Origin: an uncultured Candidatus Saccharimonadales bacterium | GTDB lineage: Bacteria > Patescibacteriota > Saccharimonadia > UBA4664 | DNA: 64,000 nt | Assembly: GCA_964609585.1 (NCBI GenBank) | Contig: CAZSRA010000001.1 | Location: 45,816 to 109,815, forward strand | Reading direction: 5' to 3' | Shown: one piece after another, positions 49,428-64,000 of the stretch | Position numbering within the stretch: the first letter of the stretch is position 1 | Layout of the letters: every line of letters begins with the position of its first letter | Made by a program: the position numbers and the translations under genes | The notes under the pieces: generated by a model | What the model was told of the DNA's origin: nothing | Database searches by the model: none | The model's input: the letters and a program-made list of their open reading frames with translations, nothing else

Positions 49428-50243
49428 TTATTGCTTTTTTGTCAACCTAAAGCCGAGGATGAAATAGCCTTGTTCGATAGGATGTAGATGGTGTTTGGCG
49501 GCTTCGGTGATGAGGCTTTCGTGTTGCCAGGGATCGCATTCGGTGAAAAGATGGCCGCCAGCGGCTAAATGTGCGGGAAGGTCTTTTAGGAAGCGACGAT
49601 AGAGATCAAGGCCGTCTTGGCCGCCGAAGAGAGCGACAGCGGGTTCTTTCGTGACTTCGGGCATGAGATCAGCATCAGTACGAAGGTAGGGGAGGTTGGT
49701 GACGATAGTGTCGTAGGTGCCAGGGACGTTTTGCCAGAGATCGGATTCGATGAGGGTGATGCTGGCGTGGTGCTTTCGGGCATTACGACGGGCAATGTCT
49801 AGTGCTTCGGGGCTGATTTCGGTGGCAGTGATGGCGAGATCTGGCCGGTGAGCAGCAATGGCTATCGCGATGGCACCGGAGCCGGTACCAATGTCGATAA
49901 GACGGGAATCTTTGGGCGTATATTTAATGGCCCAGTCGACGATTTGCTCGGTTTCGACGCGGGGTGTGAGGACGTCCGGGGTAATGATTATATCTAGGCC
50001 ATAAAACTCGCGGGTGCCGGTGAGGTGAACAACGGGGGTGTGCTCGGAACGGCGCGAAATGTAAGCTTCGAAATCGGCTTCTTGGTGGAGGGTGAGGATT
50101 TCGTCGTCGTGGGCGAGAAGCCACGCGCGATCGCGGCGGAGAGTGTGGGCAAGCAAAAGCTCGGCGTCTAAGCGGGCGCCGGCAATATTTTGGCTCTCTA
50201 GGAATGTAATGGCGGCGATGAGGGCTTCACGAACGGTACTCAC
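49428..50243 (-). CDS. prmC: Release-factor glutamine N5-methyltransferase PrmC/HemK.
   Basis: SAM motif 'LIDIGTGSGAIAIA' and substrate motif 'IVTNLPY' (NPPY-type). It lies downstream of prfA. Confidence 0.85.
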   Translation of the reverse strand: MSTVREALIAAITFLESQNIAGARLDAELLLAHTLRRDRAWLLAHDDEILTLHQEADFEAYISRRSEHTPVVHLTGTREFYGLDIIITPDVLTPRVETEQIVDWAIKYTPKDSRLIDIGTGSGAIAIAIAAHRPDLAITATEISPEALDIARRNARKHHASITLIESDLWQNVPGTYDTIVTNLPYLRTDADLMPEVTKEPAVALFGGQDGLDLYRRFLKDLPAHLAAGGHLFTECDPWQHESLITEAAKHHLHPIEQGYFILGFRLTKKQ

Positions 50244-50779
50244 GGGGCGGTTTTGAGGTGGGCAACGAGGGCGGCAACAACATCCTTGAGGGGTTTGGTG
50301 GCGTCGATGGTAATGGCGCCGAGAGAAGCCATTTTTTCTTTGAATGGGGCTGCCCAGCGGATGAGTTGTTGTTGTTCTTCGACGCGCTGACCGAAGCTGT
50401 GATCGGTTTTGCTGCCGGTGACGCGCTCGATCATAATATTTTCTGGGATATCGAGGTAAAAGACATTGGCGAAGAGATCCCAGGCTTTGTCGATGTTGCC
50501 GGCGTTGCCGAAGAGGAGGATAGGGCTAGGTGAGTCTTCGAGGGTTCCGATGAGTTTTTTGAGGCGGTCAATTTCCCATACGTAGGAATGATTTGCCCAC
50601 CAGGCGGCATCGGCGCCTTGAGGGTAGGGGACGGGTTTGCCGGCTTTATTGATGAAATAGCAGAGGCCGGGGGTGCTGTCGGCTTCAATGCACGTATAGC
50701 CTAGATCATTAAAATGATCTGATAAGGCGGTCTTGCCTGAACCCGAGGGCCCAGTAATTAAGTAGACGGGTTGGTTCAT
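50240..50779 (-). CDS. Small P-loop NTPase, kinase-like (179 aa).
   Basis: Walker A '[16 protein letters not shown]'. The size and layout resemble nucleoside/nucleotide kinases. It sits between prfA and prmC with overlapping stop and start codons. Confidence 0.5.
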
Positions 50780-51837
50780 GTGGCGGCCTGCTCCAGCTTG
50801 AGACGCAGATCTTCACTGCGAAGGGCTTCTAGCATATCAGATATTTGTCCAATCATAAAGCCCGGCAAGCCATGTTGGGTGCGGCTGATGCGATGATCGG
50901 TGACACGGTCTTGCGGAAAATTGTAAGTGCGGATTTTTTCGGAGCGGTCGCCGGTGCCAATTTGACCGAGGCGAGCCTCGCGATTTTCGCGTTGTTCGTC
51001 TTCGAGCTTTTGAGCGAGAAGGCGTGAGCGCAAGACGCCCATGGCTTTGAGTTTGTTTTTAAGCTGGGATTTTTCATCCTGGCAGGTAACGACGAGCCCG
51101 GAGGGAATGTGTGTGATGCGAACGGCAGAGTCGGTAGTGTTTACCGACTGGCCGCCGTGGCCGCCGGAGCGGTAGACGTCGATGCGCAGATCGGACTCTT
51201 TGATCTCGAGATCGGTTTCTTCAGCCTCGGGCAGGACGGCGACGGTGACGGTAGAGGTATGGATGCGCCCGCCGGATTCGGTTTCGGGGACGCGCTGCAC
51301 ACGGTGCACACCGGATTCGTACTTGAGCCAGCCGTAAGCCTCGGTGCCTTTGACTTCGAAGATAATTTCTTTGTAGCCGCCAACGTCGGAGGGGGATTCA
51401 GATACAAGCTCGATGCGCCAGCCGGGCCTAGTTTCAATGTAGCGGGCGTACATGCGGTAGAGCTCCCCGGCAAAGAGGCTGGCTTCGTCGCCACCGGCGC
51501 CGGCGCGGATTTCGACGATGGCGTTTTTGGCATCGGCTGGGTCTTTTGGAACGAGGGCGAGGCGGAGGTCGTCGTTTACGGCAACGAGAGCGGCTTCGAG
51601 ATCGGGGATCTCGGCTTGGGCGAGCTCGCCCAGCTCAGGGTCGGTGGCCATTTCCTGGTTTTGAGCCAGATGGTCGGCGATTTGGGCGCGGCGGTCGTAG
51701 AGTGTAATGAGGGGGGTGAGTTCGGCCTGACGTTTGGCAAGGCTGACCATTTCGGGGGTGCCAAAAAGACTCGGTTCAGTCATACGAGAGGCGAGATCTT
51801 CGGTTTCGGCGCGGATTTTTTGTTCGGTAGGGTCCAT
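50776..51837 (-). CDS. prfA: Peptide chain release factor 1. Preferred start is ATG 51837 (MDPTEQKI...); the ORF track extends to 51876.
   Basis: GGQ motif '[26 protein letters not shown]'. The PxT tripeptide 'PET' and '[15 protein letters not shown]' are present. The RBS gagga lies 5 nt before ATG 51837. Confidence 0.85.
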
Positions 51838-51874
51838 GGTGTCCTCAGGGTGGTTTCTTGTACCTTTGGCTAAC

Positions 51875-51912
51875 AAAAAACGCTCGTCAACTAATATTGT
51901 ATCAGAGCGTTT
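51875..51912 (-). terminator. Rho-independent terminator after rpmE, on the minus strand.
   Basis: On the minus strand the stem aaacgctc pairs with gagcgtttttt; the T-tract is the rc of aaaaaa at 51875-51880. Confidence 0.55.
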
Positions 51913-51923
51913 GAGGAGAGGGG

Positions 51924-52244
51924 CTAAGCTTCAGCAGTGGTGTCGGTGTCGACGGTGTCGGCCTGGAGTTCTTCTTGAATTTTAGCCACTTCCGGATCTG
52001 CTTTTTTGTTTGTGGTGGCGGCTTTGGCTTCGGCGCGCTTGGTAGCTTCGGCCTGGCGAGCCTTGAATTTGTCGACGCGGCCAGCGGTGTCGATGAGTTT
52101 TTGCTTACCCGTATAGAAGGGGTGGCAGTTGGAGCAAATTTCCACGTTAATCTCAGCCACAGTGGAGTGGCTCTTGAAGGTGGTGTTGCAACCGTTGCAG
52201 TGAACGGTGGTTTCGAAGACTTCGGGGTGGATGGCGGTTTTCAT
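51924..52244 (-). CDS. rpmE: Ribosomal protein L31 with a ~40-aa charged C-terminal extension. The start is the internal Met (MKTAIHPE).
   Basis: '[48 protein letters not shown]' carries the C-x-x-C...C-x-x-H zinc ribbon of L31 type A. The tail is '[25 protein letters not shown]...'. Confidence 0.8.
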
Positions 52245-52382
52245 AACTTGGTGATTGTACCTGATATATGTGCGGTGGTCAAGGCTTGTGTGGGCAATGA
52301 TTGCGGTTGGGCCAGACGAAGCGAGCACGAGGCTCGGCTTCGTCTGGCGGGGCTTGCCGGCGGCGGATGCGGCCGGAGCGGT

Positions 52383-52580
52383 TTACTCGCTGACGGGCCG
52401 GACGTCGGTCGGGCGAACGGTGAGATGGTCGCCTGCGAGGTCATCGAGGTTGACGGCGATTCGGTCTCCCCCTATCCGTGCGATCGTGGCGTCGGTGCCC
52501 GCCGGAGCCATGTCGACATAGCTGGTTCTGACCGGCTTGGTCAGCTGCACGTGATCGCCGACTTTGAGCCTAGTACTCAT
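52383..52580 (-). CDS. Small hypothetical protein (65 aa), divergent from rpsB.
   Basis: A strong RBS gaggag lies 5 nt before ATG 52580. The sequence is 'MSTRLKVGDHVQLTKPVRTSYVDMAPAGTDATIARIGGDRIAVNLDDLAGDHLTV'. The ORF track extends it to 52670 without RBS support. Confidence 0.4.
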   Translation of the reverse strand: MSTRLKVGDHVQLTKPVRTSYVDMAPAGTDATIARIGGDRIAVNLDDLAGDHLTVRPTDVRPVSE

Positions 52581-52793
52581 GTATGCTCCTCGGTTGGAGG
52601 TAGTGTGCGGGCGCCCACTGAAATTTCTTGTAGGCTTTGATATTAAGCTGGAATGAATGTGTAAAGTCAATGCCTAGGCTTTTCATTTATAGTTGTTTCT
52701 GCTAAAGTACATGGGCTAAGTATTTTTTTAATGAATCAGTACGGCCGTAATCCTCCCGCTCGGGTGGTCGTATGAAGATGAAAGGACACAATT

Positions 52794-53516
52794 ATGGCTG
52801 ATGTAAGCCTAAAAGAATTACTGGAGGCTGGAGCTCACTTTGGGCACCAGACTCGTCGTTGGAATCCGAAGATGAAGCCTTATATCTTTGGCGTTCGCGG
52901 TGGCGTACACATTTTGGACCTCACGCAAACAGGCGTAATGCTCAAAGAGGCGACCGATTTTGCTCGTAAAACAGCGGCAAATGGTGGCAAGGTACTGCTC
53001 GTGGGCACGAAGCGCCAAGCGATGCCGGTAGTGAAGGAGATTGCAGAAACCAATGGCTTGCCGTTTGTGACTGAGCGCTGGCTCGGTGGTATGCTCACGA
53101 ACTTCCGTACGATTCGGTTGCAGGTGCAGCGTTTGAAGAAGCTGGAAGCCGGCATGGACAGCGGTGATTTTGCTTCTAAGTACAACAAGAAAGAGCTGCT
53201 CGATTTCTCGAACGAAATTGCGGCCTTGACCCGGGTATTTGGTGGCATTAAGCACATGGACGGTCTGCCTGGTGCAATATTTGTAGTGGACGTGCCAAAA
53301 GAGAGTATTGCGGTAGCTGAGGCGCGCAAACTGGGTATTCCGGTGATTGCGATTGTGGATAGCAATGCTGATCCAGATCTCGTGGATTACAAAATCCCAG
53401 CCAACGACGATGCTATTAAAGCGGTGCGGGTTATTACGCAAGCTATCGCCGAGGCGGCGGCTGAGGGCACCAAACTTCATGCAAGTAAAGCGGCCGATAA
53501 GGCGGTGGAGGTTTAA
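52794..53516 (+). CDS. rpsB: 30S ribosomal protein S2.
   Basis: '[25 protein letters not shown]...[29 protein letters not shown]'. Confidence 0.95.
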
Positions 53517-53517
53517 G

Positions 53518-54105
53518 ATGGCGATCGCTGTAGAAGACATTAAGAAGCTGCGCGACCAGACGGGTGCTGGCATGATGAAAGCTAAAGAAGCTTTGGAGCA
53601 CGCTGAGGGCGATTTTGATAAGGCCGTGAAGTACCTGCGCGAAAAGGGTGAAGCGACGGCCGCGAAAAAGAGCGACCGCGAAGCCCGCGCTGGCCTCATT
53701 GAAAGCTATGTGCACGGCGGTCGGATTGGTGTACTCGTGGAAGTGAACTGCGAGACCGATTTTGTGGCTCGCACTGAAGACTTTAAGACGTTTGTGCGCG
53801 ACATCGCTATGCATATTGCGGCGAGTGCGCCCCAGTACTTGAACGCCGAGGCGGTGCCGGCAGATGTGGTTGAGAGTGAAAAGGGGATTTACCGCAAAGA
53901 GGTTGAAGGAAAACCTGCAGAGATTATTGAAAAGATTGTGGACGGGAAGCTGGCCAAGTTTTATGAGCAGGTTTGTCTGGTAAACCAGCCGTTTGTGAAA
54001 GATCCGGATGTCACGATTGGAAAATTGACTACTGACTTGATCGCGAAATTGGGAGAGAATATTGTCATTCGCCGGTATGAGCGAATGGAACTTGGAGGCG
54101 TATGA
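53518..54105 (+). CDS. tsf: Elongation factor Ts, short form (195 aa). It starts at the internal Met; the track ORF begins at 53347 inside rpsB.
   Basis: '[44 protein letters not shown]...[17 protein letters not shown]'. It starts 2 nt after the rpsB stop. Confidence 0.9.
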
Positions 54106-54662
54106 TTCGAGCATTAGTTGAAGAAGCCGGTCCGAAGATGGAGAAGGCGGTCGCGCATTTTGGGGAAGACCTGAAGAGTTTGCGTACGGGCCGAGCATCG
54201 GTGAGTTTACTCGACGGCATTATGGTAGAGCTTTATGGGGCAGTGCAGCCGCTGAAGGCAGTTGCGAGTGTGAACACGCCGGATGCGCGCACGATCGCCG
54301 TGGCACCGTGGGATAAGGGTGCGATGGGGCCGATTGAAAAGGCGATTCGTGAGAACCAGGCGCTGGGGCTCAATCCGAGTAGTGATGGCAATGTGATTCG
54401 CATGAGTATTCCACCGTTGACTGAAGAACGGCGGCGGGAAATCGTGAAGAGCTTGGGTGGCAAGGTGGAAGATTGCCGGATTGCGCTGCGCAACATCCGC
54501 CACGAAGTGCTCAACGAGGTGAAGCGACTGGAGAAGGCCAAAGAAGCCACTACAGATGATATCAAGTTTGCCGAAAACGAACTCAACAAGAAGATTGAGC
54601 AATTTCAGCGCAAAATCGAAGAGCTCGAAGCGGCTAAGGCCAAGGAGATCATGGAGGTCTAG
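54102..54662 (+). CDS. frr: Ribosome recycling factor.
   Basis: 186 aa, with '[39 protein letters not shown]' and a C-terminal coiled coil. It directly follows tsf; no pyrH lies between them. Confidence 0.9.
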
Positions 54663-54665
54663 CTT

Positions 54666-55373
54666 TTGAATGAGGGCGATGCATCTTATGGTGATACGCC
54701 GGTTCATTTGGGGCTGATTCTTGATGGGAACCGGCGTTGGGCCAGGGAGAGGGGACTGCCGGCACTCGAGGGGCACCGACGAGGTTACGACCGACTTCAC
54801 GCCGTAGCGCGAGCCGCCGCCGATAAAGGGGTGCGTTATATTTCGGCCTACGTTTTTTCGACGGAAAATTGGAGTCGCACGCAGGAAGAGGTCGATTTTT
54901 TGATGGACTTGTTGCTCTGGGTGGTGAAGCATGAGGTCGACAAATTTGTGAAAGAGGGTCTGCGGATCGTATTCTTGGGCTCAAAAGAACGGCTATCCGC
55001 AAAGGTGCTCCAGGCGATACTGGCAGCTGAGACAAAGACGAGAGACGGCGCACGGGCAGTGGTAGCCTTGTGTTTTAATTACGGTGGAGAGATGGAGCTC
55101 GCTGAGGCAGCGGCCGGGCTGGTGCGTGATGGAGTGCCGGCAGTGGAAGTGACGCCCAGGAAGTTGGCTGAGTATTTGTATCATCCTGAAATCCCGCCGG
55201 TAGATCTTATAATTCGAACATCGGGTGAACAGCGGCTTAGTGGATTTATGCTGTGGCGAGCGAGCTATGCTGAATTGTACTTTACTGAGGTGCTTTGGCC
55301 GGCTTTTGGTGTGGCAGATTTGGACGCAGCTTTAGCGGAGTATGGTAGGCGCAAGCGTCGGTTTGGGAAATAG
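54666..55373 (+). CDS. uppS: Undecaprenyl-diphosphate synthase (cis-prenyltransferase).
   Basis: 'HLGLILDGNRRWARERGLP' and 'RRFGK' at the C-terminus. Confidence 0.9.
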   Translation: MNEGDASYGDTPVHLGLILDGNRRWARERGLPALEGHRRGYDRLHAVARAAADKGVRYISAYVFSTENWSRTQEEVDFLMDLLLWVVKHEVDKFVKEGLRIVFLGSKERLSAKVLQAILAAETKTRDGARAVVALCFNYGGEMELAEAAAGLVRDGVPAVEVTPRKLAEYLYHPEIPPVDLIIRTSGEQRLSGFMLWRASYAELYFTEVLWPAFGVADLDAALAEYGRRKRRFGK

Positions 55374-55398
55374 TTAACATCGGGTACAATGAGAGAGA

Positions 55399-56511
55399 AT
55401 GTTAACCATTGTAGTTGTCATTATTTTGTTTTCGTTGCTCGTGATTTTGCACGAGTGGGGTCATTTCATTATGGCGCGACGTGGGGGTGTGGAGGTCGAG
55501 GAATTTGGCATTGGTTTTCCGCCACGGATCGGGGGCAAAAAGGTAGGCAAAACCTTTTACTCGGTGAACTGGCTGCCTTTGGGCGGATTTGTAAGGCTTA
55601 AAGGTGAAGATGCGAGTGAGGTGGGGCCGGGGACGTTTAGCGAGGCTAGCTATGGCGTGAAGGCCCGAGTATTACTGGCGGGCGTGGGGATGAATTTGCT
55701 GACGGCTGTGGTGATTTTGTATGGGCTGTGTGTGATTGGTCTGCCGGCACTGGGGGCATCGTTTGAACCTAGCTTTTTGAAGCATACCTATGCCCAGACG
55801 CCAAGACTTACGCTAACGGAGGTGACGAGCGGTTCACCAGCTGCGCAGGCCGGTCTAGTGCGAGGAGATTTTTTACTCAAAGCTAACGATACGGTCTTGT
55901 CCGATGACGGGGTTTTGCGAACCTTTACCAAAGAACATGCTGGCCAGAATGTGGTACTTACAGTGCAGTCTGGCGAGGCGATCCGCAGCGTGGTGGTGAA
56001 GCTTCGGCCGGCATCGGCTGGATCTGCGTTTTTGGGTGTGGCCGGCCAGCAGGTGTATAAGCTGCGGTATGATCCTTTAAGAGCTGTTGTGGCGGCTTTC
56101 TACATTACGGGGGCTTTGTTTGTGGCAACGATTGCGGGGGTCTTTGAGCTTATTATCCATTTGCCCCAACTCATTTTTGGATTGTTTGCGACGACGGTGC
56201 CTAAGGCAGCCGAGAGCGCTTCGGGTCCACTCGGGATTATTTATATTCTGAAGAGTTTGTCGTCGCTTGGATATAGCTATATTTTCTTATTTATGGCAAA
56301 CATTGCGGTGGCGCTGGCGGCTTTTAACGTCTTGCCGTTGCCGGCGCTCGATGGCGGGAGACTTGCAATTATCTCGGCGCAGCGCTTTTTGAAGCGCCAG
56401 ATTTCGGCAGATACGGAAGCCAGGATTCATGCGACGGGGTTTTTGGCTCTCATTGGGCTTATGCTGGTTGTAAGCATATATGACGTGCGAAAGATTTTCT
56501 TTCATGGCTAA
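55399..56511 (+). CDS. rseP: RseP/S2P family M50 zinc metalloprotease with a PDZ domain.
   Basis: HExxH 'LHEWGHFIMARRGGV', PDZ 'GSPAAQAGLVRGDFLLKANDTVL' and an LDG motif 'NVLPLPALDGGRL'. Confidence 0.9.
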   Translation: MLTIVVVIILFSLLVILHEWGHFIMARRGGVEVEEFGIGFPPRIGGKKVGKTFYSVNWLPLGGFVRLKGEDASEVGPGTFSEASYGVKARVLLAGVGMNLLTAVVILYGLCVIGLPALGASFEPSFLKHTYAQTPRLTLTEVTSGSPAAQAGLVRGDFLLKANDTVLSDDGVLRTFTKEHAGQNVVLTVQSGEAIRSVVVKLRPASAGSAFLGVAGQQVYKLRYDPLRAVVAAFYITGALFVATIAGVFELIIHLPQLIFGLFATTVPKAAESASGPLGIIYILKSLSSLGYSYIFLFMANIAVALAAFNVLPLPALDGGRLAIISAQRFLKRQISADTEARIHATGFLALIGLMLVVSIYDVRKIFFHG

Positions 56512-57253
56512 ATGGTTCGGAAGAAAAAAACGCGAAGTCCCGGATTTTTTACAAGTGCCTTGGGGTGTTCGCGACGTGCTGGTGTTTATTGGTCTTTGGA
56601 TTGGACTGCAGATTTTGATTGGCGGGATTCTGGCTCTCACAGCGAGCAAGGTTCCGGCGGTGAAGATGTTTTGGGTGGGCGCTCAAAATGGCGAGATGGT
56701 AGCTTCATTCGTTATGTATTTGGTGAGTGTGGCGGTGGGCTTTGGGCTGGTAGGCTTGTTTCTGCGCCGGTATAAGGTGAACTGGCGAACAGTGGGTTGG
56801 CGCAAGGTGGGGGTGGGGAGAGCTATGAAGTATCTCCTCGGAGTTTTAGTAGTCTTTGTGGTTTTGGCCAATTTAGCTTTGGTAGCAGCAAAATTTTTGT
56901 TTCCGGGTTTTAATGCGGATCAGCCCCAAACGAATGACTTTATTTCGGGAGCGGGAGTAAATCATACTTTGGCGCTGGTGGCGCTTGTGATTTTGCCGCC
57001 GATTTTTGAGGAGACGATTTTTCGAGGTTTTTTGTTTCCGGCGTTGTCGAAACGCGGCGGGGTAATATGGGGTGCGGTACTATCCTCGATGATTTTTGGA
57101 GCAGCGCATGGACAGCCGAATCTGTTTGTATATACCTCAATCTTGGGGCTATTGCTGTGCTTTATGTACATGCGGCTACGGAGTATTGTGCCGGGCATTT
57201 TTTTGCACATGCTCAATAATTATTTGGCTTTCATTGCGTTGTCCGGGAAATAG
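56504..57253 (+). CDS. CPBP (CAAX protease/Abi) family intramembrane metalloprotease. The ORF track start 56480 overlaps rseP, so the exact start is ambiguous.
   Basis: Motif 1 'EETIFRGFLF', motif 2 'FGAAHG' and a C-terminal 'HMLNN'. Confidence 0.8.
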   Translation: MAKWFGRKKREVPDFLQVPWGVRDVLVFIGLWIGLQILIGGILALTASKVPAVKMFWVGAQNGEMVASFVMYLVSVAVGFGLVGLFLRRYKVNWRTVGWRKVGVGRAMKYLLGVLVVFVVLANLALVAAKFLFPGFNADQPQTNDFISGAGVNHTLALVALVILPPIFEETIFRGFLFPALSKRGGVIWGAVLSSMIFGAAHGQPNLFVYTSILGLLLCFMYMRLRSIVPGIFLHMLNNYLAFIALSGK

Positions 57254-57261
57254 TTTTTTGA

Positions 57262-57468
57262 CTTGAGGTGAATTGTTCGTTATAGTTGGGCACAAAGCTG
57301 TGAAGGGGTATCCCGCCCTGGAGCTGCCGGCGATGAGCCGTGTCGGGTGCACCCGTAACAAGCGTAATTTGAGGCCGCAGTTGTCTGCGGTGAAGGCAGG
57401 ATGGTACCACGAGTGAAGCCTCGTTCTTGCTAAACACTTCTTTGTGTTTGGTTGGAACGAGGTTTTTA
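57262..57468 (+). promoter_or_regulatory. Putative T-box leader (tRNA-sensing riboswitch) with a terminator/antiterminator upstream of proS.
   Basis: A T-box-like box 'aaggcaggatggtaccacgag' (57394-57414; compare the consensus AANNNGGGTGGNACCGCG) lies immediately 5' of a terminator. The terminator stem cctcgttc (57419-57426) pairs with gaacgagg (57456-57463) and is followed by ttttt. Pro codons (ccc/ccg/cct) occur in the upstream stem region around 57310-57320. Confidence 0.55.
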
Positions 57469-57486
57469 ACGTTTTAAGGAGAGATT

Positions 57487-58728
57487 ATGAAATTATCACA
57501 GACATTTGTGCGGCCAACGAAAACGGTGAGTGGTGACGGGGACACACTGAATTATCAGCTGCTGACGAAGGGTGGTTTTGTGGACCAGTTGATGGCGGGG
57601 GTCTATACGTATTTGCCGCTCGGCCTTCGGGTGCTACGAAACATTGAGCAGATTGTGCGCGAAGAAATGGACGGGCTGGGGGCCGAGGAGATTCTGATGC
57701 CAACATTGCATCCAAAGGTACCATGGGTGACCACGGGTGGATGGGACAACATTGATGTTTTGTTTAAGATTAAAAGTCGTACGGGTAACGATTACGCGCT
57801 GGGCCAGAGTGAGGAAGAGGTAGTGACGCCGGTGGTGATGAGCCGGGTGGTGAGCTACAAGCAGTTGCCACAGAAGGTGTACCAAATTCACTGGAAATAC
57901 CGGGATGAGCTGCGAGCGAAGAGCGGGATAATGCGCGGGCGCGAGTTCTTTATGAAGGATATGTATTCGTTTCATACGAGCCAGGAGGATTTTGACAAGT
58001 TTTATGCCGAGGTGAAGGCGGCCTATTTGCGGATTTATAAGCGGCTGGGACTTACGGCTAAGGTAACAGAGGCTTCGGGAGGAGCTTTTACTACGAAGGT
58101 GTCATACGAATTTATGGTGCTGACGGATGCGGGTGAGGATGACATTTTGTACTGTGAGAAGTGCGATTTTTGCGTAAACACCGAGATTGCCAAGGTGAAG
58201 GAAGGGGACGAATGTCCGCTTGGTAAGGATGGCAAGCTGAAAATGGCACGGGCGAGTGAGGTGGGGAATGTATTTGATCTGGGACGCAAGTATGGTAAGG
58301 ATTTTGATCTGGGCTATGTGGACGAGCACGACCAGAAACAGTATCCGATTATGGGCTGTTATGGGATTGGTATTTCGCGTGTGATGGGGGTGATTGTGGA
58401 AAAATATGCCGATGAGAAGGGGATTGTGTGGCCCAAGACGGTGGCACCGGCGGCGGTTCATGTGGTGCGGCTTGGTACGGATAAAGAGGTGATCCAGGCA
58501 GCCGATAACTTGTATAGTGAGCTGACGAAGGCTGGCATTGCGACATTGTACGACGACCGAGACGCGCCGGCTGGTGCGAAATTTGCGGATGCGGATTTGA
58601 TTGGCGTGCCGATTCGCTTGACGCTGAGCACGCGAACATTGGCGCAGAAGCAGGTAGAACTAAAGCGGCGTAGTAGCGAACAGGTGGAGATGGTGGACTT
58701 GGCTGAGGTTTTGAAAAAGCTAAGCTAG
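57487..58728 (+). CDS. proS: Prolyl-tRNA synthetase, compact form (413 aa) without the bacterial INS editing domain.
   Basis: Class II motifs are present. 'LLTKGGFVDQLMAGVYTYLPLGLRVLRNIEQIVREEM' and 'FFMKDMYSFH' are ProRS-like. Confidence 0.85.
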   Translation: MKLSQTFVRPTKTVSGDGDTLNYQLLTKGGFVDQLMAGVYTYLPLGLRVLRNIEQIVREEMDGLGAEEILMPTLHPKVPWVTTGGWDNIDVLFKIKSRTGNDYALGQSEEEVVTPVVMSRVVSYKQLPQKVYQIHWKYRDELRAKSGIMRGREFFMKDMYSFHTSQEDFDKFYAEVKAAYLRIYKRLGLTAKVTEASGGAFTTKVSYEFMVLTDAGEDDILYCEKCDFCVNTEIAKVKEGDECPLGKDGKLKMARASEVGNVFDLGRKYGKDFDLGYVDEHDQKQYPIMGCYGIGISRVMGVIVEKYADEKGIVWPKTVAPAAVHVVRLGTDKEVIQAADNLYSELTKAGIATLYDDRDAPAGAKFADADLIGVPIRLTLSTRTLAQKQVELKRRSSEQVEMVDLAEVLKKLS

Positions 58729-58754
58729 TGAACTTCGACATAAAGCGGCTCAAC

Positions 58755-58790
58755 GGCCCACAGCGAAAGATTTCTCTTTCACTGTGGGCC
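58755..58790. terminator. Hairpin between convergent proS and the lipoprotein gene.
   Basis: Stem ggcccacag pairs with ctgtgggcc across an 18-nt loop. There is no U-tract. Confidence 0.4.
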
Positions 58791-58821
58791 GCATGGGGGC
58801 CGGGTGTTGAGCGCACTCTCT

Positions 58822-59571
58822 CTACGAGGTCGGGTACTGGAGGTTCCCTGAGTCTACCGGATCGAGATTGTCGGCACACACAGCTTGTACGAAGTGTGGT
58901 AGTGTCTCGACCCATCCAGGACAGGGGCTGTCCAAGACCTCGTTGGCTGGATGAGAACAGAAGAATTTCTCCGTCTTCAGGTCGTGTGTTCGGCCGATGT
59001 AGGGAGCGTCGCAGTTTCGGGTGAACAAGCTGGCTTTTGTGGCTACCAGCTTGGTTCCGCCGTCTTCGACCGCATAGATCTCGCCCGAGGGGCAGATGAA
59101 GCCCCGATGGATGAACGGCGAGATCGAGTGCCCTGTCTCGGTGGGCGGCATTATGGAGCCGATGGCACCGGAGCCGTCGAGCCCGCCATTGTCGAGCAAC
59201 ACATCGATGATGTGAGAGGGATCCGTGGTCGACGGGTAGCCGCCCTTCACGATGGCGGCGTCGGACTGGTCGTGCGTGAGCGTGGCAACGGTGCTTGCGT
59301 TGCAGCTCATAGTGGCGGCGTCGGCGATGTTGCCGCCGGTGGGTAGGGCCGGCGGCGGCGAGGCGGTGAGCGGTGCTTGTCCGCCTTCCACGCCAAAGCC
59401 GGGTTGGGGCGATGCCGACGTCTGAGACGCGGGAGCCGGTACGCCGACGACGGCGATGGACTGGGTGGTGGGCTTGCTGGCGCAGCCAGCGGCAGAAACA
59501 AGTACAGCTATTGCAGCCACGACCGCTGCGATGAGAGTGCGAACGTGTCGAAGAGCTTTCGGAGGTCGCAT
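58822..59571 (-). CDS. Putative lipoprotein (~249 aa). The start is the internal Met with a strong RBS.
   Basis: 'aaggaggagg' lies 4 nt before ATG 59571. The signal plus lipobox is 'MRPPKALRHVRTLIAAVVAAIAVLVSAAGC'. The mature part contains several Cys. Confidence 0.6.
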   Translation of the reverse strand: MRPPKALRHVRTLIAAVVAAIAVLVSAAGCASKPTTQSIAVVGVPAPASQTSASPQPGFGVEGGQAPLTASPPPALPTGGNIADAATMSCNASTVATLTHDQSDAAIVKGGYPSTTDPSHIIDVLLDNGGLDGSGAIGSIMPPTETGHSISPFIHRGFICPSGEIYAVEDGGTKLVATKASLFTRNCDAPYIGRTHDLKTEKFFCSHPANEVLDSPCPGWVETLPHFVQAVCADNLDPVDSGNLQYPTS

Positions 59572-59616
59572 GACCTCCTCCTTTCGAGATAGATCATGGA
59601 CAACGCGATTGATGTA

Positions 59617-59646
59617 TTTATAGAATGACTTGCCAGTAAAAGTCAA
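59617..59646 (-). promoter_or_regulatory. Sigma70-like promoter on the minus strand for the lipoprotein gene.
   Basis: On the minus strand: -35 ttgact (rc of 59641-59646), an 18-nt spacer, -10 tataaa (rc of 59617-59622). Confidence 0.45.
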
Positions 59647-59673
59647 GATGATTTTACTACAAAGTATCTCGAG

Positions 59674-62562
59674 CTATTTCTGGAAAAGTTCGAGAAGGTC
59701 CTTTTCCGCATAGTGTTTTGCAATACCGGTTTGAGCTAGCATGTAGTCGACAGCTGTTTGCATATTGATTTTTTTGTCTTGAGAAAGACCTTTGTAGAGT
59801 ATCCGAGCATACTGGGGTGATGGTGGGACGTGTGGTGTTTGGGGTCTGGCGGCGGTAAGGGTAAAGATGGGGTAGCCGTCTTTTTCGCCACAGTAGAGCA
59901 AAAGATTATAGTAACCGGTATCTTTGCCTACGAGGGCGCGGCCTTTTTCGATAGCTTCCTTAAAAGGAAGTGGCGTGGATGTTTTGAGATCATTTTGCTG
60001 GGCTATGATGTCTTCGAATTGCTCGACAGTGATAAGGTGAGCTCGCGATATGGTATGAGCCTCGGCATTATATTCGGGGTTAATAATTGCCATCCCACCG
60101 GTCCAGGTTTTTGATTCACCAGCAAAATAAAGGGTATGGGGGAGAGCCATGAAGCGATTTTGAGGCGGCAGGGTCTTGTCGCGACAGCCGGGATACACTT
60201 CTGTACCATCAGCCGTGCGCCCACCCAGTATGACGTGCTTAAAATGCTCGCGTGACAGCCCTGTGCCATAGGTGGCATACCATACATGTGTGGTTTTCGC
60301 GATGCTCGTGAGTGCCGCAGAGGGTTTTATAGCAACTTGTTTTATATAGGTTTCGAGAATGGTACCAAATTGTTCGAAGCTGCTTTTTGAGAGCCACTCT
60401 GCATCGGTATGGCGGCCGCCACTTATGGGCGAGACGACAATCGTGGGTATGCCAAGGGCACTGAAGTAGCGGCCGTCGGTAGCACCATAACTATATGACG
60501 CCACAGGTTTTAGGCCGGTGACATTGCCAATAAGTGTTTGGAATTTCTTGGTGTAGGGGCTATTGACGTCGTTAATACAGGGTGCCGCACTGGCGACTAG
60601 ACGACAGCTTATGTCGTGAGTTTGGCAGATGGCTTGGATTTTGGGATAGAGCTGGTTGTAGTCGTCAAGGCTTCCGAAGCGGATGTCGAGAAGCGCTGAA
60701 GCCTCGGTTGAAATTTGGTTGCTGACTCCACCGCCCTCAATGGCGCCGATTGATAAGGTGGTGTTTTTACGATTTTTGCTAGATGGGATGAGTTTTTCAA
60801 TGGCCTGGAGGGCGCCAAGCAGCTTGCCGATGGCGCTTATGCCCTCCCAAGGTCTAGAGGCATGACCTCTTTGACCGCTAGCTTTGAGCTCAATGGCCTG
60901 GACACCTTTGGCAAAGGCTTCGATTTGCCAATTTTCGCCGCCATCAGGCACGATGACGACACTGGGGCGAAGGTTAATTTGATTAAGGACGCCACCGACA
61001 CCATTTACCCCGCCAACCTCTTCATCGGTGGTGATGAGGATGCCGAAGTCGTAGGCTTCAAGATTGTCCCCCAGAGCGTCGACGACGGCGAGGTAACTGG
61101 CAATGGCAAATTTCATGTCGGCTACACCGCGGCCGCGGAAGTTGCCATTTTTTAGCGTTAGTCTAAAATCTTCTGGGTTGGCCGGCACAACATCGACATG
61201 AGCATTTAAGAGCACGGTGGGCGTGAGATTCTCGGGTGTGGTGGTGGCTAGTAATGAACTGACGCCATTTTGTTCGTAACGGGTAATATGCAGACCGCGT
61301 TTGGCGAGAAATTGCTCAATAAAACGCAGGGCAGCTTCGTTGGCCGCGGTATCGCTTGTGACGGTGGGCATGGCAATGAGTTGCTCAAGGAGGCTTGTTT
61401 GGAGTGACTGGAGGTTGACTGCCGGCTCGATCTGTGGCGTGGCTGGACCGGCTGGTAGGGGGTTTTGCAGATAGGCGAGTAAGATGGAGCGGTATTCGTC
61501 AAAGGACGCAAGCTCGACGCATTCATCGTCACTATGCGAACCCGAACCGTAGAGGCCGAACTCAATAATGTCGTTGCCGACTGCAGCGAAGTGGCGACCA
61601 TCACTGGCGGCTGGTCGACCAAGGAATTGCGGTTTGTGTCCGGTAACTTGTAGCATTGCTGCACTGAGGCCTTGGACGTAAGGGTTGAGCTCTTCCACGT
61701 TAATGGCGGGCTCAAAAGTAGCCAGGTTTATGAGCTCGGCTTCGGGATCGAGGCTCTTGATGAAGGCTTCTAGATTGTCGCGCGATTGGAAAACGGGGTC
61801 TTCTTGCGTGAAGCGGAAGTCGATTTTGAGAATGGCGCTGTCGGGGACTTTGTTGTAAGCGTCGTTGGGGGTGTAGAGGTTGGCGACACTGGCTGTGGTT
61901 GTCCAGGTTTCTTTGTCTGGGGTGGGGTAGTGCTTGAGGACGGCGCCAGCGAAGTCCCCGGCTTTGACGACGGCGTTTGTGCCATGCCATAAATGGCCGC
62001 CATGGGCTGATTTGCCTTTGATTCTAATTTCGGCCCAGCAGATTCCGCGAGCGGCGTTGTAGATGGCGTGACGATTGTTGGCGTATTCACCCATGATGAC
62101 AAAATTGGCTCGTACACCTTGCTCGATTTGGTATTGAGCGCCGCCATGGCCACCGATTTCTTCGTCGGTGACGATTTGTAGGCCAAGAGCATAGGGGACT
62201 TTATCTGCAAGTTCACAAAAAACACTGGTGAGTACAGCAGCGGTGCCTTTCATGTCGAGGGCGCCACGTCCATAGAGTTTGCCGTTTCGGATGGTGGGCT
62301 TGAAGAGTTTTGGGGTGCCGGGGACGACGTCGACGTGAGCATTGAGCAGGATATCGAATTTTTTTGGCCTAGTGGGGCCGTAGTAGGCGAGGAAGCTTGG
62401 TTTGTCGCCACGATTAAAATGCTCGATGGTGAGCTCAGGATTTTTGGCAACTTGGGCTTCGATTAGATCAATGGCTGCCTGCAGCGCGGCAGGATTGTCG
62501 GCTGAAGAGGGTATGGCGATGAGTTGTTTGGTGGTTTCGATGATTTGATCGGTGGTGCGCAT
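59674..62562 (-). CDS. Fusion protein (962 aa). It has two tandem M20-family (ArgE/DapE/dipeptidase-type) peptidase domains and a C-terminal GGCT/ChaC-like (gamma-glutamyl cyclotransferase-like) domain.
   Basis: Domain 1 motifs are 'LLNAHVDVVPG', 'GRGALDMKG' and 'IVTDEEIGGHGG'. Domain 2 motifs are 'LLNAHVDVVPAN', 'GRGVADMKF' and 'ILITTDEEVGGVNG'. The C-terminal ~190 aa start 'HVWYATYGTGLSREHF', which resembles the GGCT 'YFAYGSNLxxxR' motif. Confidence 0.7.
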   Translation of the reverse strand: MRTTDQIIETTKQLIAIPSSADNPAALQAAIDLIEAQVAKNPELTIEHFNRGDKPSFLAYYGPTRPKKFDILLNAHVDVVPGTPKLFKPTIRNGKLYGRGALDMKGTAAVLTSVFCELADKVPYALGLQIVTDEEIGGHGGAQYQIEQGVRANFVIMGEYANNRHAIYNAARGICWAEIRIKGKSAHGGHLWHGTNAVVKAGDFAGAVLKHYPTPDKETWTTTASVANLYTPNDAYNKVPDSAILKIDFRFTQEDPVFQSRDNLEAFIKSLDPEAELINLATFEPAINVEELNPYVQGLSAAMLQVTGHKPQFLGRPAASDGRHFAAVGNDIIEFGLYGSGSHSDDECVELASFDEYRSILLAYLQNPLPAGPATPQIEPAVNLQSLQTSLLEQLIAMPTVTSDTAANEAALRFIEQFLAKRGLHITRYEQNGVSSLLATTTPENLTPTVLLNAHVDVVPANPEDFRLTLKNGNFRGRGVADMKFAIASYLAVVDALGDNLEAYDFGILITTDEEVGGVNGVGGVLNQINLRPSVVIVPDGGENWQIEAFAKGVQAIELKASGQRGHASRPWEGISAIGKLLGALQAIEKLIPSSKNRKNTTLSIGAIEGGGVSNQISTEASALLDIRFGSLDDYNQLYPKIQAICQTHDISCRLVASAAPCINDVNSPYTKKFQTLIGNVTGLKPVASYSYGATDGRYFSALGIPTIVVSPISGGRHTDAEWLSKSSFEQFGTILETYIKQVAIKPSAALTSIAKTTHVWYATYGTGLSREHFKHVILGGRTADGTEVYPGCRDKTLPPQNRFMALPHTLYFAGESKTWTGGMAIINPEYNAEAHTISRAHLITVEQFEDIIAQQNDLKTSTPLPFKEAIEKGRALVGKDTGYYNLLLYCGEKDGYPIFTLTAARPQTPHVPPSPQYARILYKGLSQDKKINMQTAVDYMLAQTGIAKHYAEKDLLELFQK

Positions 62563-62584
62563 GATGATTTTCCGGTGGTTATTA

Positions 62585-62617
62585 AAAAGCCGCTCCTATT
62601 TTTTTGGAGCGGCTTTT
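62585..62617 (-). terminator. Strong hairpin with flanking A/T tracts, ~25 nt upstream of the M20-fusion start codon. It is a terminator for the upstream GCS2-like gene or a leader attenuator.
   Basis: Stem aaaagccgctcc, loop tattttttt, stem ggagcggctttt. The flanking tracts are aaaaa on one side and tttt on the other. Confidence 0.5.
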
Positions 62618-62925
62618 CTGGGTTCGTGTTTCGGAGATTAACGCGTTAGCCAGTTGCCGCTCGGGGCATAATGAATACCCAAGGCAGAATAACCAGGCTC
62701 AGACGGAGGTTGGCGACACGAGTAACGGCATGTTCTGTCCGTGCGTTTTTCATAACTTAGAGCCTAGCATGGGTATCTGGTGGTTGTCAAAAATTATAAG
62801 CATTAAGGCTTTTAGATAATTTCATGGAGTCTTGGGGAGGAGCGAGCGCTTGTGGCGCCCGCTCCTCCTCGGTTGAGCTGATCAGCAGCGGGTGAGCGCT
62901 GATCAGAGGATGGTTGTACGAACGA

Positions 62926-64000
62926 CTATGCAGCAGCCATGAGCCATTCTCCGCAGGGACGACCGAGACCGCCGGCGCTGTGCTCGGAGTCGAGATACGT
63001 TGCGGTGACTCGGTGCAGCCGCTGGCCGATCGAACCGTGTTCGGCGTTGTACTCGGCGCGGAACCATTGGTAGGGAGTTGCGCCGAGGGTGACGCGCTGT
63101 TCGACAATGCTAAGTTGCTTGTCGGCTTCGTCGCGCGAGATACCGCTTCGCACGAGAGCATCCGAGAGATCGGGGAAGAGCTGCAGGATGAACCGATCGG
63201 CGGCCCACTCGGTCATGCCGTTGGGTCCAGGGAACTGGAACTTAGCCTCCAGTCCAAGACGGGCGGCTTCGTAGAAGTTCCTCTTGGCGATGCCGATCTC
63301 AAAGCCATCACCGATCCATGACTCGATGCGATCGGCGAGTAGCTCGATGAGGGCGCAGACGAAGGCCGCGTTAGCTGCCATGTCTGCTACCGTCGGAGGG
63401 GCTCCGAGAGGACGGACTTCGTGCCTCAACCCATCCACGCCGGGAATGGGGCGGTTCCACGGATAGCTCGAGTGAAGTCCGGCACCAAGCTCTATCATCG
63501 CTCTGAGTCGTGTTGCTTCGTCCATCTCGCCGCTGAGATCCGGCAGAAGTGGACTAGAGGCGACGCTGCGACGGAAAAGCAGTATGGGGTCTGTAGCCCA
63601 CTCTTCGTCGAAGTAAGCCAAGCCTCGAGTAGCGGCTTCGAACACCGGGATGCGGGGTTCCGCACCTACGTCCTTGCCGAATAGGAATGTTCCACTTGCG
63701 CAAGCTGCCACCATCAGGGCGAGGGCCGCGAGTATGGCGTTGTGACGTCGGGCGAAGTTCTCCACTGAGGTTGAGCGGTGAACCTGGAAAGAGGTGTTCA
63801 CGCCCTCGAGCCCCACGCAGCGTGTGATTATGCTGAGGTGATCTCGACTTCCTTGGAGGTCGAGCTTGATGAGCCCGTAGAGCTGCTGAAGCCGTCGGTT
63901 GAGTTCGCGGTACCGCGGGCTGGCGCTCAGATTTCTCTCCCGCGTATCGCTCAATCTCATCGTGGGCAAGATGCCGAAGAAGCCAACTTGGCCTCCCAGT
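62926..64000 (-). CDS. Glutamate-cysteine-ligase family 2 / carboxylate-amine ligase (GCS2, YbdK-like). The N-terminus lies outside the window; the frame is open to position 64000.
   Basis: 'FQVHRSTSVENFARRHNAILAALALMVAACASGTFLFGKDVGAEPRIPVFE' parallels the YbdK core 'HVHVG...ALSAASPY..G.DTR...RPNIF'. The reading frame is open through the window end. Confidence 0.45.
   Translation of the reverse strand, partial: LGGQVGFFGILPTMRLSDTRERNLSASPRYRELNRRLQQLYGLIKLDLQGSRDHLSIITRCVGLEGVNTSFQVHRSTSVENFARRHNAILAALALMVAACASGTFLFGKDVGAEPRIPVFEAATRGLAYFDEEWATDPILLFRRSVASSPLLPDLSGEMDEATRLRAMIELGAGLHSSYPWNRPIPGVDGLRHEVRPLGAPPTVADMAANAAFVCALIELLADRIESWIGDGFEIGIAKRNFYEAARLGLEAKFQFPGPNGMTEWAADRFILQLFPDLSDALVRSGISRDEADKQLSIVEQRVTLGATPYQWFRAEYNAEHGSIGQRLHRVTATYLDSEHSAGGLGRPCGEWLMAAA

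Follow-up and report, generated by a model that had tools for sequence, protein, structure and literature searches.

What might a protein do that joins two M20 metallohydrolase units to a tail resembling gamma-glutamyl cyclotransferase (GGCT)? The question is raised by a 962-codon open reading frame (ORF) with an ATG start, located at 59674..62562 on the minus strand of a 64,000-nucleotide stretch (hereafter, the window) of contig CAZSRA010000001.1 from an uncultured Candidatus Saccharimonadales bacterium. A reading of the letters and translations alone (the sequence-only reading) had proposed that this M20-M20-GGCT-like triple fusion and the GCS2-like ligase gene next to it form a module for gamma-glutamyl peptide turnover. 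Our analysis instead favors, with some reserve, a Saccharimonadia-specific cytoplasmic double M20 deacylase/peptidase that carries an accessory, probably non-catalytic GGCT-like module. The domains and the fold are observed, as are the residue states, the distribution and the synteny; from these we infer the substrate class, the pairing mode of the M20 units and the role of the tail; our confidence in the structural statements is much higher than in the substrate class.

The triple fusion is real, and the M20 motifs quoted by the sequence-only reading are all at the expected places. Pfam finds Peptidase_M20 (PF01546, 171 bits) and M20_dimer (PF07687, 93.8 bits) on the 962-amino-acid (aa) protein, each in two stretches, and the top NCBIfam model, TIGR01910 (ArgE/DapE family deacylase), likewise covers two stretches at about aa 1-370 and 385-745. 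All modules are encoded on the minus strand. The first M20 unit (U1, aa 1-370, 61453..62562) consists of an ArgE/DapE-type catalytic domain with an inserted dimerization lid and is matched by both Pfam and NCBIfam. The second (U2, aa 386-745, 60328..61407) is a distinct ArgE/DapE-type M20 paralogue, and the tail domain (X, aa 747-962, 216 residues, 59677..60324) has a GGCT fold with a degenerate catalytic signature (YGTG, H773 and Q856). Linker 1 (aa 372-384, 61411..61449) is predicted to be disordered, with a predicted local distance difference test score (pLDDT) below 50 in the full-length AlphaFold model, and a second disordered linker spans aa 749-756. The full-length model (pLDDT 89, predicted template modeling score (pTM) 0.46) shows three independently folded modules joined by these two linkers; given the pTM of 0.46, it does not settle the mutual arrangement of U1, U2 and X. 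Inspection of the N-terminus revealed no hydrophobic stretch resembling a signal peptide, and the names attached to relatives of the protein place the organism in the Saccharimonadia/Patescibacteria.

Are both M20 units intact? We assigned the roles of their residues by aligning the units with 2rb7 and with DapE structures that have been solved. In U1 and U2, respectively, the H-x-D motif provides the ligand His (H76; H455) and its Asp (D78; D457), and the other positions are the bridging Asp (D103; D482), the catalytic general-base Glu (E134; E514), the ligand Glu (E135; E515), the fourth ligand (E159; D540, an Asp as in 2rb7), the final His (H343; H718) and the lid His (H187; H567). All eight residues of each unit are invariant in 46 of 46 full-length orthologues. 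Since no metal ligand, general-base Glu or lid His varies, both di-metal units are predicted to be catalytically active. The sequence-only reading had described both copies as complete, and neither is degenerate.

The two units are about 27% identical to each other, and U2 of the window protein shares 26-31% identity with the U1 units of orthologues, which makes U1 and U2 different paralogues and not the product of a recent duplication. Across orthologues the mean pairwise identity is 69% for U1, 56% for U2 and 49% for X, so that U1 is the most and X the least conserved module. The sequence-only reading had assigned the M20 units a Dug1-type role, which does not hold. Each unit is about 370 aa long with a lid of about 100 aa (M20_dimer), and the leading NCBIfam models are all DapE/ArgE; with no large (~200 aa) lid and with DapE/ArgE models on top, a Dug1/PepV-type dipeptidase identity was ruled out, and by sequence the units are ArgE/DapE-like small-lid enzymes. 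Scanned alone, each scores about 142 bits (E ~1e-41) against a cut-off of 217.6 for TIGR01910, and the top per-unit equivalog scores are 142.7 and 140.2 bits (NF006399, cut-off 381). Every NCBIfam equivalog cut-off for DapE/ArgE membership is thus missed by each unit scanned alone.

Compared with solved M20 hydrolases of the DapE/ArgE/carboxypeptidase G2 kind (7lgp, 5vo3 and 1cg2; the closest solved structure, and the nearest to U2, is 2rb7, of unknown function), U1 and U2 show the same catalytic domain with a small lid, and neither lacks any of the five metal ligands, the catalytic Glu or the lid His. They differ in that the window protein has two non-identical units per chain and misses the DapE, ArgE and subfamily cut-offs. 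U2 also has Asp540 where DapE has a Glu ligand, 2rb7 likewise having an Asp. M20 enzymes with a small lid work as dimers, the lid of one partner completing the active site of the other, and in DapE the lid His extends into the active site of the partner subunit. For this reason we propose that the fusion most likely fixes the pairing of U1 and U2 through their lids, either within one chain or between chains.

The identity of the tail required more sensitive searches. X has no Pfam match even at E<=10 and none in NCBIfam, PADLOC or PHROGs. The PF01546 and M20_dimer models that the sequence-only reading had put forward matched twice, as described; X had no match to AIG2_2, GGACT or ChaC at E<=10. 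Scans of stand-alone relatives of X against Pfam, NCBIfam, PADLOC and PHROGs returned nothing usable, PF13772 (AIG2_2) matching only 2 of 48 parent-family members at E values of at least 0.04. The tail sequence gave chance matches only when searched against the PDB, and no phage homologues were found. Only 2 relatives came up when the tail alone was used in a word-indexed protein search. Scanning 1.84 billion representatives exhaustively with HMMER raised this to 1543 at E<=1e-3, of which 942 reached E<=1e-10. The majority stand alone, are about 210 aa long and have uninformative cluster names, and fusions to TPR or CDC48_N/AbrB-like regions are rare: P0149 (1068 aa) carries a GGCT-like copy at its C-terminus, after a long TPR array, and in P0165, P0171 and P0187 (~510-520 aa) an N-terminal GGCT-like copy precedes CDC48_N/AbrB-like regions.

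With a profile of the fused X domains, human GGCT is the top PDB sequence (E 0.04), and the PPSxxY motif is aligned with PPSPQY. In hhalign, the profile built from 48 stand-alone members matches human GGCT with 95.4% probability (E 1.8e-8); segments of the human sequence used in this comparison agree with its PDB sequence. The structure model of X is confident (pLDDT 91). The relatives of X and the profile alignments to human GGCT together confirm that X has the GGCT beta-barrel fold. The stand-alone proteins, found in Actinomycetota, Bacteroidota, Bacillota and Saccharibacteria (the 1543 cluster representatives), are direct homologues of X, with E values down to 1e-39. Typical members are 31-40% identical to X and share its length and its G-C-x-D, EQF and PS..Y motifs; they differ in keeping YGSN, Arg and Glu, in being single-domain and in not lying beside M20 genes. 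This parent family represents a genuine branch of the GGCT superfamily that no Pfam or NCBIfam model covers. We found no functional test of it in the literature. RefSeq gives some members the name 'histone deacetylase' (L091 4043-4663, on Kitasatospora cathayae plasmid NZ_CP115451.1, WP_270151749.1, and three further matches). This is probably a propagated misannotation, the fold and motifs being those of gamma-glutamyl cyclotransferase.

We then asked whether X retains the residues of a working cyclotransferase. In the hhalign register, a near-invariant Q-E of the parent family lies opposite Q97-E98 of human GGCT, and YGSNLxxxRF lies opposite YGSNLLTERI. By the same register, the catalytic Glu (Glu98 of human GGCT) is replaced by Gln856 in the window protein, and the substrate-binding motif Y-G-S-[NL], YGSN in the parent family, reads Y-G-T-G, with the Tyr-Gly half kept. 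The Asn of YGSN is present in 137 of 139 stand-alone members (gaps excluded), as against Gly in 46 of 46 fused copies (G768 in the window); the Arg is found in 140 of 142 stand-alone members (gaps excluded), while the fused copies have Asn (32), His (8, with H773 in the window), Ile (3), Arg (2) or Tyr (1). The catalytic Glu is kept in 142 of 148 stand-alone members and in 25 fused copies, the others having Gln (16, including Q856 of the window), His (4) or Met (1), and the two sets differ at this position with a Fisher p of 1e-10. Mutation of this Glu or its equivalent abolishes the activity of GGCT and ChaC1 (PMC7022552). In terms of its residues, the pattern is that of a retained but catalytically relaxed domain, which may be a pseudoenzyme or may have changed its chemistry, and X of the window protein is most likely a non-catalytic accessory rather than a working gamma-glutamyl cyclotransferase. 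The GGCT-like domain named by the sequence-only reading stands as a fold, with a degenerate cyclotransferase signature. That reading had foreseen two failures, the lack of a GGCT fold in the tail or a degenerate M20 copy; neither was found, and the degeneration sits in the GGCT-like domain instead. Relative to human GGCT/C7orf24 (PDB 2i5t, 2pn7, 2rbh and 3cry), which is free-standing and has Glu98 and YGSN, X also carries an insertion that contains a conserved G-C-x-D motif, and it is fused to two M20 units.

Could the fusion nevertheless work in a gamma-glutamyl turnover module, in which a gamma-glutamyl compound made by the GCS2-like ligase is split by the GGCT-like domain into 5-oxoproline plus a dipeptide or amine, the product then being cleaved by the M20 units? 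The pairing of ChaC with Dug1 is established in glutathione degradation, where a GGCT-fold protein and an M20 peptidase serve one pathway, and the sequence-only reading followed the same logic. The GGCT fold of X and the intact M20 sites agree with such a module, as does a distant GCS2-type ligase gene directly upstream on the same strand. This ORF (62926..>64000, minus strand) is separated from the M20 gene by a 363-bp spacer and runs past the end of the window, which holds its 3' 1074 nt, encoding the C-terminal 357 aa of P0235 (489 aa). The sequence-only reading had called it GCS2/YbdK-like, and it appears to be a distant carboxylate-amine ligase of the GCS2 superfamily. A precomputed PF04107 match is present on all 55 listed proteins, P0235 included, some of which are named glutamate-cysteine ligase family or YbdK. 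A fresh hmmscan gave nothing at E<=0.01, with NCBIfam YbdK at 20.8 bits against a cut-off of 409, and the sole PDB matches of the family profile, both weak, were two YbdK structures, 1tt4 and 1r8g (E 0.005 and 0.057).

Several observations speak against a link between the ligase and M20 genes. The closest relative of the ligase in our search is 37% identical; the few named relatives belong to a Rhodocyclaceae bacterium, a gammaproteobacterium, a Bdellovibrionales bacterium and Quadrisphaera, and none in the search carries a Saccharimonadia name. The GC content is about 60% in the ligase region versus about 52% in the M20 gene. No GCS2-like gene lies within 6-8 kb of the orthologous M20 gene in any of nine loci (L002-L007 and L088-L090). 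Between the two genes, 22 nt before the M20 ATG, a hairpin followed by a T-run (62585..62617, minus strand) resembles a terminator or a 5' leader structure. It has a perfect 12/13-bp stem and a 9-nt A-rich loop, and its folding free energy of -23.6 kcal/mol (z -5.5) was equaled by 0 of 200 shuffles; a consensus scan missed it because the loop is longer than 8 nt. This hairpin may be the terminator of the ligase gene or a leader/attenuator of the M20 gene. A second strong hairpin (62836-62868) lies in the spacer just past the ligase stop. The ligase gene is a genome-specific and probably horizontally acquired neighbor and is not shown to be part of the same system as the M20 gene. The proposed module must also accommodate the Gln in place of the Glu whose equivalent mutation inactivates GGCT and ChaC1, the loss of the parent-family Asn and Arg, and M20 units that are ArgE/DapE-type and not Dug1-type. 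With a key catalytic residue of the tail lost and the ligase a chance neighbor, the gamma-glutamyl recycling module is not supported, and we consider it highly improbable.

How is the fusion distributed? A search with the whole protein, which the sequence-only reading had suggested, found the same architecture again: U1-U2-X proteins of ~950-995 aa form about 47 clusters, 50-65% identical, from Saccharimonadia-type metagenome bins. About 20 further clusters of ~760 aa contain U1-U2 without X, which makes X dispensable, and about 14 clusters represent a ~600-aa form, of which about 12 are U1-X. P0087 is U2-X, and P0079 is chiefly U2-X behind a short U1 fragment. P0004 (1185 aa) has two tandem GGCT-like copies after M20-M20. 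In the contigs examined, the U1-U2-X, U1-U2 and U1-X forms occupy an identical position, between the thymidylate kinase gene tmk (often fused to ThyX) and rplJ-rplL. From this common position we conclude that the forms are orthologues that have gained or lost modules, with U1 as the core that stays constant and U2 and X as accessories. The surroundings of 80 stand-alone X genes (chiefly from Actinomycetota, with others from Saccharibacteria, Flavobacteriia and Bacilli) contained no M20 gene to a distance of 6 kb, nor any neighbor that recurs; the fusion is therefore no Rosetta stone for a general partnership of X with M20 enzymes.

This distribution bears on two other explanations of the tail. 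X may still be an enzyme with altered chemistry, acting for example on another amide or carbamate, as in the allophanate hydrolase C-domain, and processing the product or substrate of the M20 units in a channeled two-step catalyst. It keeps four residues that the parent family also conserves (Q848, Q855, T903 and Y918), and its attachment to U1 or U2 in different lineages, once in two copies, suggests a functional link to M20 chemistry. GGCT-fold domains with other chemistry are known (4iss and 5i8i). On the other hand, the general-base position is E, Q, H or M inside one orthologous group, which is unusual for a catalytic residue, the domain is wholly lost in about 20 clusters, and the 80 stand-alone loci have no M20 gene within 6 kb. 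We regard an altered enzyme as unlikely, though it deserves consideration. At the opposite extreme, X may be a functionless remnant in decay, retained because it is harmless. The loss of its catalytic signature, its absence from many orthologues and its rank as the least conserved module would fit. Yet the fused copies share a mean identity of about 49% over deep divergence and many invariant structural residues (Q848, T903, P914, Y918 and G792 are invariant, structural and some polar), and, together with the confident fold, these indicate purifying selection; moreover, the domain is duplicated in P0004 and attached to either M20 unit. That X is mere debris seems to us scarcely probable.

Our preferred reading remains a double M20 deacylase/peptidase with a non-catalytic GGCT-like accessory. 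Its substrates would be N-acyl amino acids or short peptides, and the enzyme would serve amino-acid salvage in an organism with little biosynthesis. X descends from the widespread stand-alone bacterial GGCT-like family, whose polar signature it has lost, and would act, without catalysis, in ligand or substrate binding, regulation or assembly. A fused accessory of this fold has precedents in the allophanate hydrolase C-domain (4iss) and in part 2 of the Paulinella crTP (9i09), where the GGCT fold is reused as an accessory or non-canonical module (for crTP, bioRxiv 10.1101/2025.01.15.633182).

A number of points weigh against this reading. The full-length model gives no confident packing of the domains (pTM 0.46), which makes the pairing of U1 with U2 and any contact with X putative. 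Neither unit alone attains any NCBIfam equivalog or subfamily cut-off (142 versus 217.6 bits for TIGR01910). In 25 of 46 orthologues the Glu at the catalytic position is kept, and X may be active in some lineages. The match of Q856 to Glu98 derives from profile alignment and motif register. Finally, Glu-to-Gln mutants of ChaC2 retain partial activity (PMC7022552).

Could the substrates come from the cell wall? Here the DapE-like units would take diaminopimelate peptides while X binds the gamma-glutamyl part of muropeptide stems, and an auxotrophic epibiont would regain diaminopimelate or lysine from its own peptidoglycan or that of its host. The best specific matches are to DapE models, the gene is widespread and conserved next to core housekeeping genes, and the organism belongs to the Saccharimonadia, a group known to lack amino-acid biosynthesis; the GGCT fold, for its part, binds gamma-glutamyl groups. 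However, the proposal is purely inferential, the DapE equivalog cut-off is missed, and genes for peptidoglycan recycling are not consistently adjacent, and we hold such salvage to be very doubtful. A bolder version, to us equally a long shot, would have a fixed hetero-pair of DapE-like sites steered by a catalytically dead, GGCT-derived gamma-glutamyl-binding domain to the stem peptides of peptidoglycan (gamma-D-Glu-meso-diaminopimelate, gamma-D-Glu-mDAP) or to other gamma-glutamyl conjugates from the host. If true, it would be an unrecognized route to diaminopimelate/lysine for auxotrophic Saccharimonadia epibionts and the first GGCT-fold pseudoenzyme serving as a substrate-recognition module.

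The surroundings of the gene offer some further observations. At two loci (L003 11014-12165 and L089 8304-9446) the fused gene is followed directly by another M20 gene, separate from it and 380-383 aa long, so that the locus can hold three M20 units. Directly upstream of the M20 gene region, three Saccharimonadia loci have probable tmk-thyX fusion genes of 700-800 aa (L006 2267-4669, L007 3574-5826 and L089 1457-3565) with PF02223 and PF02511 matches, the ThyX match being weak in L007 and faint in L089. A gene of 540-600 aa without a Pfam match lies immediately upstream of M20-M20(-X) in four loci (L002 5977-7776, L003 6157-7785, L004 6145-7791 and L089 4173-5816). Its copies are very divergent (19-23% identity), and in one of them NF010039 hints weakly at a carboxylate-amine ligase (E 0.016); neither BLASTP nor hhalign related this usual ~550-aa gene to the GCS2-like gene of the window. 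Downstream of the M20 gene in the window, an ORF at 58822-59646 (minus strand; listed at 274 aa, but called at 249 aa in Logan) shows an N-terminus like that of a lipoprotein (…LVSAAGC…), a GC content of about 60% like the ligase gene, and no family match. In L005, a 228-aa gene without a Pfam match follows the closest orthologue. GC skew is positive across window positions 50000-64000 (+0.07 to +0.37 on the plus strand) whichever strand the genes lie on, consistent with a strong replication-strand bias. An Rfam scan of 58500-64000 gave nothing credible, and no tRNA genes were found in the window.

What, then, is new? All three folds are known, and the fusion is therefore a new arrangement of domains of known kinds; no new kind of system is revealed, and the gamma-glutamyl module idea fails the tests of context and active site. 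Public annotation names the orthologues 'M20/M25/M40 family metallo-hydrolase' or 'succinyl-diaminopimelate desuccinylase' and leaves the third domain unannotated, and our literature searches found no account of the fusion, in agreement with the sequence-only reading, which knew of none. What is new is the domain arrangement and a GGCT-like family that lacks a model and is partly misnamed, which corrects an annotation and provides a clear target for a new family model. The fused X copies resemble a pseudoenzyme version of this large unmodeled bacterial GGCT branch, and they point to an accessory function of the domain that can be put to the test, in organisms about whose acquisition of amino acids little is understood.

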